Below, one piece after another: positions 9,698-19,884 of a stretch of DNA of 26,546 bases (positions are counted from its first letter, which is position 1; each line of letters starts with the position of its first letter). A program made the position numbers and the translations under genes. This stretch comes from Pseudomonadota bacterium. Its GTDB lineage: Bacteria; Bdellovibrionota; FAC87; UBA2466. The notes beneath the pieces were generated by a model. The model ran no database searches. It was not told the origin of the DNA and saw only the letters and a program-made list of their open reading frames with translations. The stretch is taken from the NCBI GenBank assembly GCA_043718025.1, contig JAYSWN010000130.1, forward strand, positions 1 through 26,546, given 5' to 3'.

Positions 9698-12088
9698 TCA
9701 AGCGGGAGTGGGTTCAAGCGTTACCATATCGGTCGGCACAGGCGTCGGCGAACCGATCGGCGCTGGCGTCGACGAACCGGTCGGCGCTGGCGTCATCGTA
9801 AACGTCGGTTCTACAATCGGAGTGATCGTCGGGTCCACCGAGATAGTTCCGGTAGGCGTAGGCGTTGGAGTCGGCGGCGGATCAACGATGCCATCATCGC
9901 TAAGGTACAAAATTTGCTTTAACACTGCTTCTGAAAAAAGCGGCAAGATCGGCATCGTCTCTTCGTGAAATCGATTGTCGTAAATGAAAGCGAACTTTTC
10001 CAATACAAAAAGAGCCACTTCACAAATCACCACGCCCTTGAATAGACCGGGGTAGCGACTCTCTACGTAAGGGGCATTTACTAGCAGTCCGCTATAATTA
10101 ACTGGATCACCGTCTTTACCACCCCCATCAACCAAATCAGAAATCAATGCGGCCTCGGCGATGATGCGATCATTTTTCTCCGCCGTGGTAAGACCAGGTT
10201 CAACCGTGTGAAAACTATCCCGACCAATGGTGCCGGGGGCGGGGCCGTGCCGAGAGACCATGGTGTCCTGGCTTAAACCTAAAAACACGCCGGTGGCGCT
10301 GGTGATCTGAATATTCTGGCGAGCAATGGGTTCGTCCGACGGCACGTTACTTCCTTTGGCAAAGTAAGTGAATTTCTTCTGCACGAAAGCCGACCCCGTC
10401 ACATAAAACCGACAACCGTTGTCGTCGGTTCGAATTGCCAAGTCTTTTAGAAAAAGCACCCCTTTAATGATCACGTCGCCGTAACACTCTACAATGCCAC
10501 TATTACGAAAATACTTACCGGTCAGATCGAGCACGATGCCCGAGAGAGATCCCCCGAAGGGCGAAATGTATTTCAAGTTAGGCGTGGCCGGAGGAAACTC
10601 ACGGGCCACCTCAAGAATTTGGGCAGTAGTTGGAGCCCCAATTTGCACGACAGTTTTTTCAATGACGGCCGGAGCCGCAATTCCCACTTCGGGTTCCGTA
10701 AGCACCGAGCGCAGGTAAGCCGCCAAACTTTCGTAACCTAGCGCCGCCGCTGGAGTGCGGGGAACGTACACTTTGCCTTGTTGTTTAATGCCGGCCGAAG
10801 ATAACGTGGTTAATTTTGCCGTAGCCCAGTTATCGGCGTGGTTGCCGTAAATTTGCAGAGAAAACGGACTTGGTGAGCCGAAAGCGTAGGGCATTCCGTG
10901 CCCAAAATCAATGACAAACGCGCCTTGCACATCGGCATGGCACGCCACGCAACCGCTGCCGCGAACCGCCACGGCGGGCTCCAGTTGTCTAAAAAGGTTG
11001 TTAAGGCTTGAGCCGCCGTCGCCATTGTCATCGGCAGACTTGAGCACTTTTGCACTACCCATCAAGATGGCCGTCGCCGCGGTCTTGGATTGATCAATAT
11101 TCCAACCGCTGAACTCAACGTACAGTCCGTCCATCGGATCCTTCACGGTTCTCGTACGCAAAGTTTCCGAATTAGCGCTAAACGCGATTAAAAACCGATC
11201 GCTTCCTTGAACGTAGGGGATTGAAGAATCTGCCAAACCAGACGCCTGACGAGTGGCTCCCAACGCCATTAATTTTTGACCTACGGTAGTCTTAGTGACG
11301 CTATCCGCTAGCGAGCTTAGAACTAGACGCCCTTCGTTAAACGAATTTTTTGTGACCTTGCCGACGGTCGAAGTGAGGGCCCCTTCGATAAGTCCGGCGG
11401 CCGATTTTGCCAGCACTAACTTTGCATTCGGCTGCTCACCTTTCAAGTGACCCTGATTCAAATCTCGCAGGGTATCAATCGAGTGAAAATTGGCCACGTT
11501 TGAAGCAAAGGCGCCGACGGTGCCCGAGGGCTTAATGATGAACCTCATCGTAGCGTCGGTGATTCGTCCGTACCCCGATTTGGGGATAGCCGTTACCGTA
11601 TACTCTTGAGTTGATTTCCCATTCGTTTCCATGACGACATTGATCGTGATCGCGGTAACCATCGTGGGGTCGATGCTTTGCCCGTTGATAAAGCTCACCG
11701 CCAATTTTTCCGCCCCGACAAGGGGCGTAACCGCGATTCCAAATTTGCCAAAAGTCTCTGCGCTCGAAGCCCGCACGCCTGAAACCATTGTCGAGGTTTT
11801 AGGCCCGGTCACCATAAAGTCGAGTTTCGCCACATCGTCTATTGCGTTCTTTTTAGCGCGCGCTCGCTGCTCATCGGTAGCATCGGGGTCGCCCACCAAA
11901 TAGAAAGTAACATTGGCGCTAACAAATTCAGTTTGCCCATTCACATTGAAGGTTAGAACGGACGGAACCACGGCCACCAAGGCGTTGCCACGGAACATTT
12001 TGTTGCAGCCCGAGAAAAAAATGGCCAAAAACAGTAAGGCGAATACCTTTTTTGAGAAACGCCCGCGGTAAATGTTTGTCTGGTTCAA
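9698..12088 (-). CDS. Large lipoprotein with one CxxCH motif and a Pro/Thr-rich C-terminal tail
   Basis: GGAGG RBS before a TTG start, basic N-region, hydrophobic stretch ending FSGC (lipobox-like), CVACH mid-protein, tail PPPTPTPTPT...TPAPTGSSTPAPIGSPTPVPT. Confidence 0.75.
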   Translation of the reverse strand: MNQTNIYRGRFSKKVFALLFLAIFFSGCNKMFRGNALVAVVPSVLTFNVNGQTEFVSANVTFYLVGDPDATDEQRARAKKNAIDDVAKLDFMVTGPKTSTMVSGVRASSAETFGKFGIAVTPLVGAEKLAVSFINGQSIDPTMVTAITINVVMETNGKSTQEYTVTAIPKSGYGRITDATMRFIIKPSGTVGAFASNVANFHSIDTLRDLNQGHLKGEQPNAKLVLAKSAAGLIEGALTSTVGKVTKNSFNEGRLVLSSLADSVTKTTVGQKLMALGATRQASGLADSSIPYVQGSDRFLIAFSANSETLRTRTVKDPMDGLYVEFSGWNIDQSKTAATAILMGSAKVLKSADDNGDGGSSLNNLFRQLEPAVAVRGSGCVACHADVQGAFVIDFGHGMPYAFGSPSPFSLQIYGNHADNWATAKLTTLSSAGIKQQGKVYVPRTPAAALGYESLAAYLRSVLTEPEVGIAAPAVIEKTVVQIGAPTTAQILEVAREFPPATPNLKYISPFGGSLSGIVLDLTGKYFRNSGIVECYGDVIIKGVLFLKDLAIRTDDNGCRFYVTGSAFVQKKFTYFAKGSNVPSDEPIARQNIQITSATGVFLGLSQDTMVSRHGPAPGTIGRDSFHTVEPGLTTAEKNDRIIAEAALISDLVDGGGKDGDPVNYSGLLVNAPYVESRYPGLFKGVVICEVALFVLEKFAFIYDNRFHEETMPILPLFSEAVLKQILYLSDDGIVDPPPTPTPTPTGTISVDPTITPIVEPTFTMTPAPTGSSTPAPIGSPTPVPTDMVTLEPTPA
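9731..9794. repeat. Coding tandem repeat, 24-nt period, about 3 copies
   Basis: GGTCGGCACAGGCGTCGGCGAACC / GATCGGCGCTGGCGTCGACGAACC / GGTCGGCGCTGGCGTC, encoding the TPAP(T/I)GS units. Confidence 0.85.
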
Positions 12089-12491: not shown

Positions 12492-13607
12492 TCAAGGCCG
12501 GTGGCTTATCTGCACCATCGAAAAGAAGTATTCAAGGGGGGTGTTCACGGGGGGAAAGCCGTGATTTTTAAGAAACAGATTCGCCGGCTCCATGTCGACA
12601 CGGTGGTAGGTGATCAATTTGCCGGTCAAACGGTCGAAAATGGCCATTTCATTCGTAAGGGTATCGAAGCGGAAGGACAAAAGCTGAGTGGTGCTCTGAC
12701 CATCGCTTTCTCTCTTTTCGGCCCGCGTAAACGTGAGCGCGGTGGGCCGGTCACTCTGCATAAAATCTTCGGCGGCCTTAAGGTAATTTTGCTTCAGTTT
12801 GGCGTACGCCCGTTGCTCGGCGGACGCATCGCCCTTACTCGCCTCCACATCATGAAGGTAATCTTGGCGAAGCCGGATAAACTCTGGGCTGTGGGCGCCA
12901 GCATTTCGTTTTGCCGCCGCCGCTTTATCGGCGGGAGACATCGACGCACCCCGCTCAGGGAAAATACCCAAAACATGTTTGTCGACGTGAGAAACCGCTT
13001 GATTCTCACTCGAAAAACCCACGAAGCCAATTTTTTCGCCGGCCGTAAGCTGGGCAAAACGTTGTGGAGCCTGCCCATATTTTTGCGGTGCCGTTACCAT
13101 TTTGGTGAAGTTGGTAAAAAACTGGCCGGTGGTGGCTAGAGTACCAATGGCCCGGGTGTCGATCGGAAGTTTGATAAACGCCGCCAACTCCCCTTTGCCG
13201 TTGGTGATGAGAAGTTCACCGGTGACCAGGTGCAGTTTAATTCGGGTGCCGTCTGGCAGAGGAGAAGCGTAGGTGAGTGACCGCTCGTCGACCGCATCCG
13301 AAGCAAACTGCCTAAGGCGCTGCTCATAGTCCTTCGGGCCAAAACCTACGGGTAGCGAGCCATCATTGCGCGCATTTTTAGGTGGAAAGAATCTTTTGGC
13401 AAAGTCTACGGGCCAATGGTCATCCCCCCAGGGAGACTCGGCCAAATGAATTTCCCGCACGGGAAATCTAACGCGCAGATGTTCTGGATCATGCAGCGGC
13501 GCAATTGCCGAGAATAGGCAAAGTGCGGCAGTTGCTTTAGTTAATTCAGAACCGAAACCAGAAGCAGAACAAACGACCAGCAAAAGGATAACGAAAACCC
13601 TTTGCAT
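12492..13607 (-). CDS. Secreted protein with tandem RNase-toxin-like domains (paralogue A)
   Basis: GAGGG RBS and signal peptide. C-terminal half reads GFSSENQAVSHVDKH...NYLKAAEDF...FRFDTLTNEMAIFDRLTGKLITYHR. Colinear with 16187..17266. The CDS is secure; the function is inferred. Confidence 0.6.
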   Translation of the reverse strand: MQRVFVILLLVVCSASGFGSELTKATAALCLFSAIAPLHDPEHLRVRFPVREIHLAESPWGDDHWPVDFAKRFFPPKNARNDGSLPVGFGPKDYEQRLRQFASDAVDERSLTYASPLPDGTRIKLHLVTGELLITNGKGELAAFIKLPIDTRAIGTLATTGQFFTNFTKMVTAPQKYGQAPQRFAQLTAGEKIGFVGFSSENQAVSHVDKHVLGIFPERGASMSPADKAAAAKRNAGAHSPEFIRLRQDYLHDVEASKGDASAEQRAYAKLKQNYLKAAEDFMQSDRPTALTFTRAEKRESDGQSTTQLLSFRFDTLTNEMAIFDRLTGKLITYHRVDMEPANLFLKNHGFPPVNTPLEYFFSMVQISHRP

Positions 13608-13648: not shown

Positions 13649-14200
13649 TCAGTTAGCATTCCACTCAACGCACTCATTCACCAGCTGGGTGAAGGGTAAA
13701 CCGGGCTCAAGACCAACGGCCTTTACTGTAGACCAGTAGAATTCAATCTTTTGCGCAATCACCGGAGGAGTTCTCGGATCGGCTAGTAGCCCCTTTACGG
13801 CGACCTCGGTGCTCTTGATTCGCGCCCGTTCGGTGGGATCGGTGCTGGGCAGCAGGGCAAACTCATTAGAAAACGGTTGAATGGTCGTTTCAAGAACTTG
13901 CGGCGTTATCCCACCCGGAGGTAAGGCCCGCTGAAACTCAATTAGGCTCTTATTGATTTCGCTTAACCGGAGCAAAATACCCGCAGTTTGGGCTACCTGT
14001 TTCAGACTCACGCCGGAATGCATAGTGAGGGTTTCTCTTCTCACTTTGTCGGGAAGGTCAGCCACCCCCTTACTTTCGTCAGCCAAAACAACCAGTAGCG
14101 CATTGCAGACCAACCTCTCTTTGGTGGCCAAGGCGTGCGGGCCCGCAGCAATCAAAAAGGCACCTAAAAGCACACGTATCCCAGCGTTCACAACAGGCAT
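13649..14200 (-). CDS. Secreted hypothetical helical protein
   Basis: 183 aa, signal peptide ending HALA, co-oriented 41 bp upstream of paralogue A. No recognisable domain. Confidence 0.65.
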   Translation of the reverse strand: MPVVNAGIRVLLGAFLIAAGPHALATKERLVCNALLVVLADESKGVADLPDKVRRETLTMHSGVSLKQVAQTAGILLRLSEINKSLIEFQRALPPGGITPQVLETTIQPFSNEFALLPSTDPTERARIKSTEVAVKGLLADPRTPPVIAQKIEFYWSTVKAVGLEPGLPFTQLVNECVEWNAN

Positions 14201-14784: not shown

Positions 14785-15125
14785 TAAGGAAACCGCCCAC
14801 CCGACTCGAAGCCTCACGCAAAAAAGAACCTCGGGCGATGACTATAAGACAAGTAAGGGGAACCAAGTGAAATGGGTCGTGGCAAAGTAAGTGGCCCCTC
14901 CACGGTACAGCACCACTCGGCAGCACCAGGATGAAAAGCTAAAATCTTCCCTTAAGTGAAACGCCAAGGCAAAACCCCACGCTCCCCACACATCGCCATT
15001 TCCACCAAATACTATTTGACGCCTTTTTCTATAAAATTGAATGCCGAACTCTGCTCCGAGACGTGGCGGTTTTAACCACCAGAGCAGACGTTAAAGCGCC
15101 CTCCAGGTCACGGATTGATTATTCT

Positions 15126-15152
15126 TCGAGGCGCGGTGAGGGCTGCCGATAG
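15126..15152 (+). promoter_or_regulatory. Putative sigma-28 (FliA)-type promoter of the HNH gene
   Basis: TCGA-N15-GCCGATAG against the consensus TAAA-N15-GCCGATAA, 67 nt before ATG 15220. Confidence 0.45.
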
Positions 15153-15219
15153 GCAAGGGCTTATCGCGGAATGTGGACGTGAAAAAGGCTCTCAAAAAAC
15201 TCATGATACTAATTTGTTC

Positions 15220-16158
15220 ATGACGACCACCGCTCAAATCCTAGACGCAAAAGTAAAACAGTTGGCAAAAACTCTTCTCCACACTGAAGGGTTGGTGCTC
15301 ACCACTCTCATGGAGATGAGCCGAGTCAGGGTCTTTGCGGAGCTAAATTACTCAGGGGTATTTGATTACTGCCTTCGCGCATTGGGCATGAGCAAAGAAC
15401 AGTCTTACTATTTTAAGAAAGTGGCCGCGGTTTCAGTACAGGTACCAGAGCTAAAAACTGCCATCGTTCACGGTGAACTATCGCTTTCATCGGCCCGCCG
15501 CATCGCCCCTATTCTCAATGCGGCAAACCAGGCGGAGTGGATTACCAAAGCCAAGGAGCTGAAGCAGAGTGAGCTTGAAAAGGCGGTGAGTGAAGTCAAT
15601 CCGCAAGCTCATCCTAGAGAGCGGATAAAGCCTGTCGCCAAAAACGTATCGGAGCTTCGTGTAGTCATTGACGATGTCACCGATGGCAACCTCACCATGC
15701 TCAAAGACCTGCTCTCTTCTAAATTAAGACGCCCGGCAACGTTGGCCGAAGTAATTGCTTGGGCAGTTCAAGAGACCAGGGAACGGCATGACCCCGAGGC
15801 TAAGGCCAAGCGGGCGAGAAGAGTTTCCCCAGGAAAACCCGAAAAACAAAATTTGCTTGGCGCTAATCCGGCAATCAACGCTGTGACTACAGCCGGCGTT
15901 ATAGAAGCCGCGCCAAGGCAAAGGGAATCGAACCGGCTGCCAATCCCCGCCGCCATTCGCCACGCCGTTGTGCAACGCCAAGGAGCGCAGTGTTCGTTTG
16001 TTTCGCAAGACTACCGGCGTTGTGAGCAGAAACGTTGGCTCGATTTGCATCATCGCTTAGCGGTGGCACACGGCGGGATGAACCAAATCGAGAATTTAGT
16101 GTTTCTTTGTCACCGGCACCACCGCGCGCTGCATGGAGCGAATCATTCGCCGTCATAA
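15220..16158 (+). CDS. HNH endonuclease with DUF222-like N-terminal region
   Basis: C-terminal RHAVVQRQGAQCSF..RC..LDLHH..AHGGMNQIENLVFLCHRHHRALH. N-terminal LNYSGVFDYC..LGMS..VPEL..AIVHGELSLSSARRIAP helical region. Start set at ATG 15220. Confidence 0.88.
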   Translation: MTTTAQILDAKVKQLAKTLLHTEGLVLTTLMEMSRVRVFAELNYSGVFDYCLRALGMSKEQSYYFKKVAAVSVQVPELKTAIVHGELSLSSARRIAPILNAANQAEWITKAKELKQSELEKAVSEVNPQAHPRERIKPVAKNVSELRVVIDDVTDGNLTMLKDLLSSKLRRPATLAEVIAWAVQETRERHDPEAKAKRARRVSPGKPEKQNLLGANPAINAVTTAGVIEAAPRQRESNRLPIPAAIRHAVVQRQGAQCSFVSQDYRRCEQKRWLDLHHRLAVAHGGMNQIENLVFLCHRHHRALHGANHSPS

Positions 16159-16186: not shown

Positions 16187-17266
16187 CTATTTGTTAGTTG
16201 GGGTCAACTGAGGCAGGGCGAGAAAGTACTCAAACGGCGAATGCGCTGGCGGGAATTGATGATCCGCCAGCGAGCGGTTCGCAATATCCATGTTCAGACG
16301 AAAATACGTGGTTACCTTACCCGATCCGCGATCGATAACGGCCAGTTCGCGAGTGAGCACATCAAAGCGATAGGCCATGACATGTTCGGCCCCGTCGAAT
16401 TGCCGGATCTCTTTACGGGTGTAGGTCAAACTCGTAGCCCGTTCGCTTTTTAGAAATTTTTCGGCCGCTTGCATGTAACTCATTTTTAGTGCGGTATAGG
16501 CTCGCTCTGCACAACCTCTATCTTCTGCACAGTTTTTTATAGCGAGGGCAAAATTTGTTCGTAGAGCCTCGAACTCAGGCGGTCGATTAACGCTCGCGCC
16601 CATGGCAAAGTTGGCCTTGTAGGCGAGCGGCATTTGCCGCACTTCCGGCGCTAAGCCAAGCACATGCTTATCGACATGCACGGCCAAACTGTTCCCGCTG
16701 ATGAAACCTCCAAATTCCATACTTTCTCCCGCACTCAGCCTGGCCACTTTTTCTCCACGGCTAGGCAGCGAAACCGTTTCAACCAGGTGGGAAAACAGAT
16801 GGGCCGTAGAAACATAGGCGGCCACCGATCGCTGGTCCACCGGCAGCCTCAAATACAGCCCCACATGCCCCTGCTTATTGAGAATCAGCATCTCGCCAGT
16901 GGCCAAATGCATTTTGAGCGAAGTGGAGTCAGGCAGTTGTGAAAAGTGGGTAACCGATCGCGCATCGAGGCCGTCTCTGGCAAACGCTCGAAGACTCGCC
17001 TCAAATTCTTTCACGCCAAAACTGATTGGCTGATAGCCATCATTCGAGGGCTTGGGAGAGGGAAAATGATACCTTGCCAGCTCTATCGGACGCTCGCACG
17101 AACCCCAGAGCGTTTGACTCAAAGAAACGGCGCGCGCCGGGAACAAGAGGTGAACCGATTTTGGATCCTGCACTGAGGCGATGGCGGGAAGTTCAAACTG
17201 GCAGGCCAATGCCCCCGAGCAAAATAGAAAGAAGCCCGCAAAAAACGCAAACGCCACCCGTGACAA
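16187..17266 (-). CDS. Secreted protein with tandem RNase-toxin-like domains (paralogue B)
   Basis: GGAGG RBS, TTG start, signal peptide ending ALA|C. C-terminal half reads GFISGNSLAVHVDKHVLG...SYMQAAEKF...YRFDVLTRELAVIDRGSGKVTTYFRL. A 54-aa ungapped block (NDG...LI) shares 30 identities with paralogue A by hand count. Confidence 0.6.
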   Translation of the reverse strand: MSRVAFAFFAGFFLFCSGALACQFELPAIASVQDPKSVHLLFPARAVSLSQTLWGSCERPIELARYHFPSPKPSNDGYQPISFGVKEFEASLRAFARDGLDARSVTHFSQLPDSTSLKMHLATGEMLILNKQGHVGLYLRLPVDQRSVAAYVSTAHLFSHLVETVSLPSRGEKVARLSAGESMEFGGFISGNSLAVHVDKHVLGLAPEVRQMPLAYKANFAMGASVNRPPEFEALRTNFALAIKNCAEDRGCAERAYTALKMSYMQAAEKFLKSERATSLTYTRKEIRQFDGAEHVMAYRFDVLTRELAVIDRGSGKVTTYFRLNMDIANRSLADHQFPPAHSPFEYFLALPQLTPTNK

Positions 17267-17532: not shown

Positions 17533-19884
17533 GTGTTGGTGGGGAAAACTATCTGTCTCGTCTTGGGGTTTCTCTTTTTGGTCAGTTCATCATTCGGTGG
17601 TGAAAAAAGGAACGGTTATTCCAGCGGCTATGGAAACCGCAACGGCAATGGCAACGGAAGAGCCAGACCTCCTTTCCCCGCTATGGCTGAAGCAAGGCCA
17701 GTCAATTCAAATCCAGCCTCGACCCACTTGGTCCATCGCTATTTAGTAGAAAAGCTCAAAATAGAAAAGCCTGAGCTATTCGACATGTCTTACAACTTTT
17801 TTGAACTCACGCGCTCACTCGGCGATGACCGAATGAGAAACGCCGAAGCGCTTAAAGAAATGGCCGAAACTTTTTTCGCGCCAGAGTCTGCAGAAAGCCT
17901 GCGCCAAATATTAGAAGCGGCGATGAAGACCGATTACAACAACGCCCTAATTCTCGCCGAAGCGGGCGTCGGCAAAAGCTTTTTGGTAGACCAGATCGCT
18001 GGTCTTTTTTCGTTCGGCATTTTGCCCGACTATCTCGCCAAAGAGATCGCCTATCCCGCCGATCAAAAGTCACCCTATGCAAATATTTTAAGGCAGTTCA
18101 TCAACAACACGCAGGTGGTGAAGATAAATACGGCGCTGCTCATGAAGCACGACGACAAGCCCGGCGAGGCTTGGTCGTCTGAAGAGGTGCGCATGCGTGC
18201 GACGTTAGAAGCGCTGTTTGCTGAAGCGCGCAAAGAGTTTAACCTTGCCGACAAAAGCGGAAAACGCGTTGGACGCCGCACGTTCTTTATGTTCGATGAG
18301 TTCGCCACCCTTCCCCCGTTCGTCAAAGAGTTGCTTAAGACCATTTTGGACGAAACCGGTTTTCAAAATCCTGACGTCGCGCTGGTCAAAAAGCCAGACC
18401 CTGGCTTCTCGGTACTCTGTTTCACCACCCCCGCAGAGTACCGGCGCATATCGGCCGGCGATTCAGCAATCGACCGGCGCTTTAAGCTAATTAAAATTGC
18501 GGAGCCGAATGAAAATTTGGCTTTTCGCATTGTTCGCGCCAAAAGCACCAATGAGTGGGAACCCCTCTACGGCGTCGCTATCAGCGACGAAGCAATATGG
18601 CATCTAATCCACAGCCGCCGTTTCTTAACCACGCCGCCTCTCGCCATGCCCGGCTCGATTCTAGCGGCGGTGAATACCTTAATGACGTGGAAGTTAACCA
18701 ACCCCGGAGAGAGCTCGAACGAAATTACCGTGAAAGACGCGCAACTTTATCTGACCCGGGCGGCCGGGCTGACCGATTTATGGCTTGAGGGGCCCAACGG
18801 CGAACCGCCATTGAGCGGGCTTGAAGAGCGAGCGCTTCAGCACGTAGTGGTTAAAGACCCTTCCCTTCATAAAATTGCCGAACGCTGGAAAGCATTTTCA
18901 CGGTTGGAGCACAACGGGGCGATTCCCGTATTCATCGTTATGGGGCCCACCGGTTCGGGAAAAGACACCCGTTTTGAGGCCTTAAATATGGCGCTATTTG
19001 GCCACCGAGGAAAGCAGTTCAATTTTAGTCTGGCGGGCACCAAGGGCTTCGGCATTGATGCCCTTATATCGGGTCCCCCGCTTGGCAATCATAGTGACGG
19101 AGAGCAGGGTTTGTTAGTACGGGCGTTAGACTCTGGATTGGGCAATAGCGCCGTTGCCTTCAACGAAGTGGCCGACACGCCAAGTGAAGAGCTAGAAAAG
19201 CTAAAGGTACTGGTTGAAAGCGGTGAAGTGCGTCCGAGCGGAATGGATTCGCGGCCGCGCCCCTTACGTTACCCCATCTTCTTAATGGGTCAGTGGGGCG
19301 AAGAGATCTTTGACGGCATGACCGATGCCGAAAAGATGGAGCGCTACCAATCTCTTACTCAAGATGAGATCGAAGGGTTCTTACTCAAGGGAAAAGGCGA
19401 TGGAACCATCGGCGCCGTTCCCCCGGCCCTAATCGAACGCGCAAAGAAATCCGGCGGCATCTATTTCGTACCCCCGATGGTGGTGGCAGATTTTCCGGCC
19501 GTAATCGGCACTTGGCTCCCGGGACTTATCGAAGACCTAAATAAAAATAACGCCATCGAAGTGGTGGTTTCTCCGCAACTGATCAAATTCATCGCCAACA
19601 CGGCGGCCTCAATGGCGCACGGAACGCGCGGGCTGAGTGCGGTCACTTCTGATTTCACAAAGGGCGCTATCTCTCGTTCGATGGACAAAGGTCTACCCAC
19701 AACTCACCTTTCACTCATCCTTGATCACATACGCAGAATCGATGGCCAAGACTTCATCGTGGTGCAGCACGTAGAGAGTGGGTTGTCTTATCAATTCACT
19801 CCCCAAGAGCTCTATCGGCATAAGTTTTCGTGCGGCGGACAGCTCGGTGAAATGGGCCAACCCGCGGCACTGGCTGCCAAATAA
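17533..19884 (+). CDS. ClpA/ClpB-like double AAA+ ATPase with an N-terminal signal peptide
   Basis: NBD1: AEAGVGKS, FMFDEF, TTPAEYRR, DSAIDRRF, EP. NBD2: MGPTGSGKD, LISGPP, AFNEV, PALIER, HGTRGL. N-terminus KTICLVLGFLFLVSSSFG. Exact start among 17533/17536/17539 is uncertain. Confidence 0.82.
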   Translation: MLVGKTICLVLGFLFLVSSSFGGEKRNGYSSGYGNRNGNGNGRARPPFPAMAEARPVNSNPASTHLVHRYLVEKLKIEKPELFDMSYNFFELTRSLGDDRMRNAEALKEMAETFFAPESAESLRQILEAAMKTDYNNALILAEAGVGKSFLVDQIAGLFSFGILPDYLAKEIAYPADQKSPYANILRQFINNTQVVKINTALLMKHDDKPGEAWSSEEVRMRATLEALFAEARKEFNLADKSGKRVGRRTFFMFDEFATLPPFVKELLKTILDETGFQNPDVALVKKPDPGFSVLCFTTPAEYRRISAGDSAIDRRFKLIKIAEPNENLAFRIVRAKSTNEWEPLYGVAISDEAIWHLIHSRRFLTTPPLAMPGSILAAVNTLMTWKLTNPGESSNEITVKDAQLYLTRAAGLTDLWLEGPNGEPPLSGLEERALQHVVVKDPSLHKIAERWKAFSRLEHNGAIPVFIVMGPTGSGKDTRFEALNMALFGHRGKQFNFSLAGTKGFGIDALISGPPLGNHSDGEQGLLVRALDSGLGNSAVAFNEVADTPSEELEKLKVLVESGEVRPSGMDSRPRPLRYPIFLMGQWGEEIFDGMTDAEKMERYQSLTQDEIEGFLLKGKGDGTIGAVPPALIERAKKSGGIYFVPPMVVADFPAVIGTWLPGLIEDLNKNNAIEVVVSPQLIKFIANTAASMAHGTRGLSAVTSDFTKGAISRSMDKGLPTTHLSLILDHIRRIDGQDFIVVQHVESGLSYQFTPQELYRHKFSCGGQLGEMGQPAALAAK

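Follow-up and report, generated by a model that had tools for sequence, protein, structure and literature searches.

A putatively exported tandem of colicin D-like folds, one with and one without its predicted catalytic residues, in a small protein family of Bdellovibrionota

Ribonucleases of the BECR fold include a Colicin-like group, which one report describes as a pre-alpha element followed by an alpha-beta1-4 core, with an active site made up of a histidine of the pre-alpha element, a nearby lysine or arginine and beta4 (Pham et al., 10.64898/2026.08.28.747851). According to the same report, EndoU-like BECR RNases feature an N-terminal duplication of the BECR core, in which the N-module is the more variable one and the active site is formed by both modules. 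CdiA-CT O32:H37 cleaves RNA non-specifically with a catalytic centre like that of colicin D, and its active site depends on support by EF-Tu (PMC12585627), which is echoed in a further report (10.64898/2026.09.18.752725). Nucleases with signal peptides are also described for the predator Bdellovibrio bacteriovorus, where the DNases Bd0934 and Bd3507 are secreted into the bdelloplast (PMC7925074).

Here, we analysed a gene of an uncultured member of the Bdellovibrionota (contig JAYSWN010000130.1 of assembly GCA_043718025.1), which is located in a stretch of 26,546 nucleotides referred to as the window. This gene A encodes a protein of 371 aa, starts with ATG and is preceded by GAGG; its parts are listed together with those of its paralogue, gene B, in Table 1. 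We give about even odds to the reading that its product is a Sec-exported pair of colicin D-like RNase folds, of which the C-terminal copy would cut the RNA of prey or neighbouring cells, while the dead N-terminal copy would serve as a structural buttress. An earlier note on this DNA had listed a set of motifs for the C-terminal half, all of which are present on the translated ORF (G197-F198, H207-V-D-K210-H211, Y275-x3-A279-x2-F282, R313-F-D-x2-T-N-E320 and T333-Y334). A plus-strand ORF overlapping gene A (12501-13139) was set aside, as the homologues conserve the minus-strand protein.

Table 1. Genes A and B and the parts of the gene A product. Positions refer to the window.
Feature	Position	Strand	Description
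Gene A (P0001)	12492..13607	-	Signal peptide, degenerate BECR module, linker and intact colicin-like BECR module (predicted)
Sec-type signal peptide, residues 1 to ~19	13551..13607	-	Basic start, hydrophobic core VFVILLLVV; hydrophobicity heuristic
Cys30, near the mature N-terminus	13518..13520	-	Cysteine in 22/22 family members
N-module, residues ~48-173	13089..13466	-	Pre-alpha helix, core helix, four-stranded meander and tail helix; devoid of the catalytic residues
FAKRF (69-73), degenerate HxxKH counterpart	13389..13403	-	Profile alignment
Linker, residues 174-189	13041..13088	-	Short strands between the modules; structure model
C-module, residues ~190-366	12510..13040	-	Colicin D / CdiA-CT O32:H37-like RNase fold (predicted)
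H207-V-D-K210-H211, predicted catalytic motif	12975..12989	-	K and second H in 22/22, first H in 19/22
Helical insertion between motif and core helix	12786..12974	-	63 residues in gene A; structure model and alignment
Gene B (P0002), paralogue	16187..17266	-	Same architecture, 359 aa; 39.8% identical to gene A over 344 columns

Tblastn and module profiles detected no copies other than genes A and B in the source genome, and both belong to a small unnamed family. Of 3739 candidates from a word-indexed search with gene A, five proteins were retained, one of them the query, and a six-sequence profile run against 1.84 billion representatives gave 20 matches at E 0.001 without a length limit, namely 18 proteins of 284-394 aa, a 90-aa fragment and a repetitive 547-aa chance match. 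The latter two were left out of the family alignment, which comprises 23 rows. For all counts, P0007 was dropped as the same protein as P0002, which leaves 22 C-modules, and P0023 and P0026 were dropped for want of an N core, which leaves 20 N-modules. These 22 members are 20-53% identical to the gene A product, and no family in Pfam, NCBIfam, PHROG or PADLOC names any of the 23 aligned proteins. Word-indexed profile searches with capped candidates yielded at least four and at least five proteins; a long stalked form was not among the matches listed, which is weak evidence against such forms. A separate listing showed no RNA holder. Metagenome and viral contigs were also scanned with patterns that reach close relatives only, which raised 99 and 28 candidates, none of which was confirmed.

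Within the phylum, matches were found in 13 of 401 genomes, i.e., the source genome, five of the 33 others of its family and seven in three other families. The spread in the source family (6/34 genomes) is patchy and the same-genus genomes have no match (0/3); the gene is therefore no core predation gene. Tandems with an intact C-terminal site were seen in four of the 34 family genomes (twice in the source genome, G000, and in G008, G019 and G146; a 354-aa homologue stands at the same-family locus L002/L008, and the same protein at L007). Further forms in this family are two proteins without an N core in G021, a single domain in G004 and a second gene in G008 with both modules devoid of the histidines, while in the other families the matching proteins have one domain and a hydrophobic N-terminus.

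The earlier note had proposed that the N-terminal half of the protein repeats the skeleton of the C-terminal one. From single sequences this is not apparent: aligning the two halves of gene A alone gave a local score of 36, which was matched by 157 of 2000 shuffles and is not significant, and the score for gene B alone was matched by 85 of 2000. Between the family profiles, though, the repeat is clear, with an hhalign probability of 97.4% (E 1.3e-11) over 57 columns, pairing residues ~91-148 with ~272-338, and a score of 66.9, whereas 40 column shuffles averaged 11.1 and did not exceed 19.5, and the reversed profile scored 14.4. Global profile alignments, mastered on insertion-free members, extend the repeat to include both the pre-alpha and the tail helix and place both FAKRF and LARYH, its counterpart in the paralogue, on HxxKH, in agreement with the proposed loss of the histidine pair, with low confidence in those columns. 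Since all 20 N-modules fall on one side of a branch with an SH-aLRT of 100 in a quick tree of 48 modules, the simplest reading of the sequences is that one old duplication gave rise to the N- and C-modules.

A model of the full protein (pLDDT 88.8, pTM 0.84) features a helix plus four-stranded meander twice, the elements of the C-module being H201-212, H261-283, E290-301, E304-315, E320-325 and E330-336. In this model, the C-module has the Colicin-like topology of a pre-alpha element followed by alpha-beta1-beta2-beta3-beta4. Among 48,161 chains, the full model matched best to 8EY4_A, the structure of CdiA-CT O32:H37 (Z 6.4, rmsd 1.9, 87/88 residues, 28% identity, residues 198-364), the only chain counted at a Z of 5 or more in the whole-model pass, with colicin D second at Z 5.0. 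The N-module folded alone from five sequences gave a weak model (pLDDT 54), for which 8EY4_A again came first (Z 6.4, rmsd 2.7, 71 aligned) and colicin D filled the remaining two of the first three ranks (Z 5.6 and 5.5). A Z of 6.4 lies below 8, the level above which a match counts as more than a common arrangement. The BECR/RNase fold proposed earlier for both halves is supported by this ranking, which 8EY4 and colicin D led by Z. Foldseek gave no match at E 0.001 for either the full model or the N-module. Its chain order was similar, with 8EY4 and colicin D first for the N-module (E 0.03-0.05) and near the top for the full model (E 0.2-0.4). No EndoU entry appeared among the best 50 rows of either structural search.

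Because the structural Z values sit below the caution level of 8, a sequence bridge provided by the single-domain relative at locus L012 matters: it matches the family profile at E 7e-12 and 8EY4 by sequence at E 2e-4, HxxKH on HxxKH. A PDB sequence search with the gene A protein alone gave no match, and a six-row profile reached 8EY4 at E 1.1. Matches of the 23-row profile to AcrIIC3 and PriB (E 0.6-1.2) were rejected as chance. A chi-conotoxin match (E 0.32) covers the hydrophobic signal region only.

The residues of the two copies differ markedly. In the C-modules, F198, K210, H211, Y275, A279 and E359 are found in 22/22, T333 in 21/22 and Y334 in 20/22, and the conserved histidine with its nearby lysine lies on the pre-alpha element, in register with the HxxKH of 8EY4 through L012. 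The stretch between H211 and Y275, which includes the helical insertion, counts 50-64 residues in 18/22 members and 11-16 in the other four. In the N-modules, KH is missing in 20/20 and a lysine before the last motif position occurs in 0/20; the positions matching HxxKH hold mostly F/L, R/T/other and F/Y, a histidine matches H211 in three of the 20, including gene B, and a threonine matches T333 in only two, vs. 21/22 C-modules. The claim that an intact HxxKH is confined to the C-terminal half therefore stands, with K210/H211 in every C-module and the motif in none of the N-modules. Judged by sequence and model, the N-module is a colicin-like fold without an active site, and the C-module fits the Colicin-like group. 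By analogy to colicin D and CdiA-CT O32:H37, RNA would be cleaved independently of metal by H211 together with K210 and H207, and the substrate may be either bulk RNA, which O32:H37 degrades, or tRNA, the target of colicin D.

A very improbable alternative is that the RNase-like fold has another job, e.g., binding RNA without cutting it. The middling Z-scores would suit this, as would the relatives at L017, L019 and L022, which lack catalytic histidines (in L017 and L019 the second one). Against it stand K210 and H211, which are invariant in 22 members sharing 20-53% identity with the query and correspond to the HxxKH of 8EY4. The same three relatives also count against the RNase-and-buttress reading, and so do the three N-modules with a histidine at the H211-matching position.

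Two observations on such divergent relatives deserve mention on their own. A sub-family comprising L017 1441-2403(-), L019 1411-2403(-), P0036, P0038 and P0039 has a helical N-domain, and KH of its C-module is replaced by KR (HFxKR/YFNKR). Moreover, the 283-aa relative at L022 1390-2241(-) in G008 has the HxxKH histidines in neither of its two modules and represents a fully dead tandem.

How the two copies are arranged was predicted by folding N (40-176) and C (190-368) as two chains, with residues 177-189 left out. The N/C interface scored 0.87, the best of three controls 0.00, and the runs agreed in at least 86% of contacts with a partner pLDDT of at least 84. Of the solved complexes, 116 of 157 attain the mark, compared to 2 of 215 mismatched pairs. 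Since two halves of a single gene are prone to pass such a test, the geometry rather than the score is the useful part. The predicted interface sets N 61-83, 134-148 and 152-173 against C 288-295, 312-319, 337-346 and 351-366. The first two N segments are the pre-alpha region and beta4, which make up the former pocket, and the third is the tail. In the model, the former pocket of the dead copy is predicted to be buried against the back of the live copy, which would fit an N-module that lost its site since the site became an interface. P0023 and P0026 have lost the N core and kept the tail helix, the part that packs on the C-module.

The earlier note had considered that the inactive copy could auto-inhibit the active one. 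In a pro-toxin of this kind, the dead copy would act as built-in immunity that is removed or displaced on delivery. This could explain why there is no separate immunity gene, the modules are predicted to bind tightly, and N contacts reach residues 337-340, just after beta4. However, H207, K210, H211, T333 and Y334 are all missing from the listed interface, although unlisted residues may still touch, and the predicted absence of catalytic residues argues against occlusion and for a buttress. In addition, the single-domain proteins with signal peptides at L012, L016 and L018 lack both an N-module and a shared immunity neighbour, and in-cis inhibition is therefore not required. We consider auto-inhibition improbable, and this part of the earlier proposal is not upheld by the predicted contacts.

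Not every feature of the N-module suits the buttress equally well. Its interface positions are no better conserved than its others (0.39 vs. 0.45), its core is about as conserved as that of the C-module (0.53 vs. 0.46), and the best-kept charged residues R97, D107 and K124 lie, like T129-G130-E131 and L133, outside the predicted interface, this whole set being kept in 75-100% of the 20 N-modules. By alignment and model, R97, D107 and K124 would be easier to reconcile with an additional binding surface than with a pure buttress role. The dead module could be a binding arm for RNA, EF-Tu or a partner in entry or delivery, with the C-module as the RNase, and the use of EF-Tu by related CDI RNases would be in favour of this. 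We regard it as a less likely option: several of the conserved N positions are fold positions common to the C-module, the net charge of the N-module is inconsistent (-7 to +5), and what P0023 and P0026 retain without an N core is the helix packing on the C-module. Further points against the RNase-and-buttress reading itself are the nearest solved relative, which needs EF-Tu, a factor that would be absent outside a cytoplasm, the patchy spread of the gene, the Z of 6.4 and the N-only pLDDT mentioned above.

The N-terminus of gene A is hydrophobic, the signal peptide being called by a hydrophobicity heuristic with the cleavage site placed by eye, and a simple heuristic finds no further membrane helix behind it. 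In the source genome, which is 92% complete, GspD, the type II secretin, was found above cut-off, and Hcp and the Rhs core gave no match. As stated earlier for this protein, there is no Rhs/CDI stalk: the 371 aa contain no Pfam stalk domain, and 18 of the 20 matches of the length-unlimited search measure only 284-394 aa. The note's remark that an immunity gene is not obvious also agrees with our data. The 403 bp between the stop of gene A and the next gene hold no free-standing ORF of at least 60 aa, a very short or unlinked immunity gene being possible, and no immunity-like neighbour is shared among the 868 reading frames of 12 loci (flanks of ~5 kb for eight and ~1.5 kb for four). An upstream gene of 183 aa was set aside as immunity candidate on account of its export-like N-terminus, its single copy in the genome and the lack of a match in other loci. 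The only strong shared neighbours in the 12 loci are what we take to be a helicase, at a distance of ~5 kb in two loci, and a presumed DNA-repair gene in two others.

With these features, the RNase-and-buttress protein would be exported by Sec, fold in the periplasm and leave the cell by type II secretion. The chain would leave the cytoplasm unfolded and, because of this proposed export in unfolded form, would need no immunity protein. Released onto other bacteria, it could cut the RNA of prey, by analogy to the Bdellovibrio DNases released into the bdelloplast. A non-toxic scavenging RNase of the periplasm or the surroundings, which would supply nutrients from released RNA and stay outside living cells, would likewise have a signal peptide and no entry domain, immunity gene or conserved context, and the nearest solved relative is indeed non-specific. 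We nevertheless hold this to be rather unlikely. The fold relatives are antibacterial toxins, the patchy spread, the 40%-identical paralogues and an insertion of variable length next to the active site are more suggestive of conflict genes, and no nucleoside-uptake genes are shared beside the gene in the 12 loci.

Apart from the signal peptide, the N-termini gave hints for a further feature. An early cysteine is found in 22/22 family members, most of which do not fit the strict pattern C-x-x-hydrophobic-hydrophobic. By a crude heuristic applied genome-wide, this motif directly follows the signal peptide in 28 of 597 signal-peptide-like ORFs without a lipobox, compared to 4-12 in three deeper windows of the proteins and 18 in the last 30 residues; the observation also concerns 13649-14200(-) of the window and the family N-termini. 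The motif is possibly a lineage-wide sorting tag.

Several other ORFs of the window are worth recording. Between genes A and B, an ORF of 347 aa (15115-16158(+)) shows a weak C-terminal HNH match (E 0.002); tblastn found it in 12 pieces on 11 contigs, including two further full copies of ~85% identity, one of them frameshifted, and it looks like a mobile, repeated element. A double AAA+ protein of 783 aa (17533-19884(+)), with several sub-threshold Pfam AAA matches, a signal-peptide-like start and a C-terminal cysteine, appears as an exported version of an enzyme that is usually cytoplasmic. The ORF at 9698-12088(-) encodes a lipoprotein-like protein of 796 aa with a CxxCH motif, a Pro/Thr-rich tail and no Pfam match.

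Neighbours of the homologues are diverse as well. At L002 3-836(-), 2645-3820(+) and L004 2381-3631(+), they include DnaJ-domain and caspase-domain proteins with signal-peptide-like starts, as well as an ORF without a Pfam match that we presume by motif to be nucleotidyltransferase-like. Directly downstream of the G019 homologue (L003 353-1444(-)), an HTH-like gene and a DUF6036 nucleotidyltransferase resemble a toxin-antitoxin-like pair, which was not seen at the other loci. In L012-L014, the three loci listed for one genus, a helical exported protein of 365 aa (L012 107-1204(+)) overlaps the start of the single-domain RNase gene; it was not found in the 34 family genomes when used as query, and a relation to the N-part of L018 was rejected, the match being not significant (E 1.4).

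Taken further, a CDI-type RNase toxin could have become an exported predation effector of the Bdellovibrionota, free of stalk and immunity gene. In one family, the dead copy would replace EF-Tu in cis and prop the active site, the RNase thereby needing no host factor, and the mature N-terminal cysteine, common to many unrelated exported proteins of the genome, would mark proteins for entry into prey by a route not yet described. As a whole, this scenario is doubtful, and the dead copy standing in for EF-Tu is speculation. Gene A represents a small and directly testable candidate for the destruction of prey RNA by Bdellovibrionota and a natural test of whether a pseudo-enzyme in cis is able to take over from a host activator like EF-Tu.

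A search in print for BECR, tRNase or colicin D-like RNases of Bdellovibrio or Bdellovibrionota, carried out mostly outside subscription journals, gave no description of the gene A family. The main text of Pham et al. (10.64898/2026.08.28.747851) does not contain the terms "Bdellovibrio," "tandem," "signal peptide" or "predator"; its supplement and website may list the family.

Compared to the known systems, Bd0934 and Bd3507 are alike in being signal-peptide nucleases of the same phylum and may serve as a model for the action of gene A. They are, however, DNases, to which gene A is likened without a claim of homology, and predation by its uncultured host lineage is itself only inferred. In CDI and Rhs systems, the toxin resides at the C-terminus of a long stalk and is followed by a downstream immunity gene. 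The Colicin-like RNases described belong to toxin systems that combine a stalk for delivery with an immunity protein, and the gene A family has neither. CdiA-CT O32:H37 is the closest in fold, as the top match of both halves, with the HxxKH pre-alpha helix, the core helix, the four-stranded meander and the sequence link through L012. It differs as a single domain at the tip of the CdiA stalk that comes with the immunity protein CdiI and requires EF-Tu, whereas gene A encodes a dead and a live copy in tandem, a Sec-type signal peptide and a helical insertion of ~50 residues, without a stalk or an immunity gene. The tRNase domain of colicin D (5ZNM, 1TFK, 1V74) is the second match of both halves (Z 5.0-5.6) and likewise has a histidine preceded by a lysine on the pre-alpha helix; its receptor and translocation domains and ImmD are absent from gene A, and it cuts tRNA-Arg. 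On sequence and model, the C-module of gene A would therefore be classed as a colicin-like BECR RNase, and the protein as neither a member of the CDI/Rhs systems nor an EndoU. With the EndoU-like RNases, the family shares the N-terminal duplication of a BECR core. There, the site is formed by both modules, whereas the invariant His/Lys of the gene A family reside in the C-module only, each module has a predicted pre-alpha helix and colicin-like fold, and the N-module lies away from the site in the interface prediction. The duplication of gene A is likely independent of that of EndoU, and a stalk-free, immunity-free family with a dead twin in one lineage would mean that the BECR core was duplicated independently a second time, with a different outcome.
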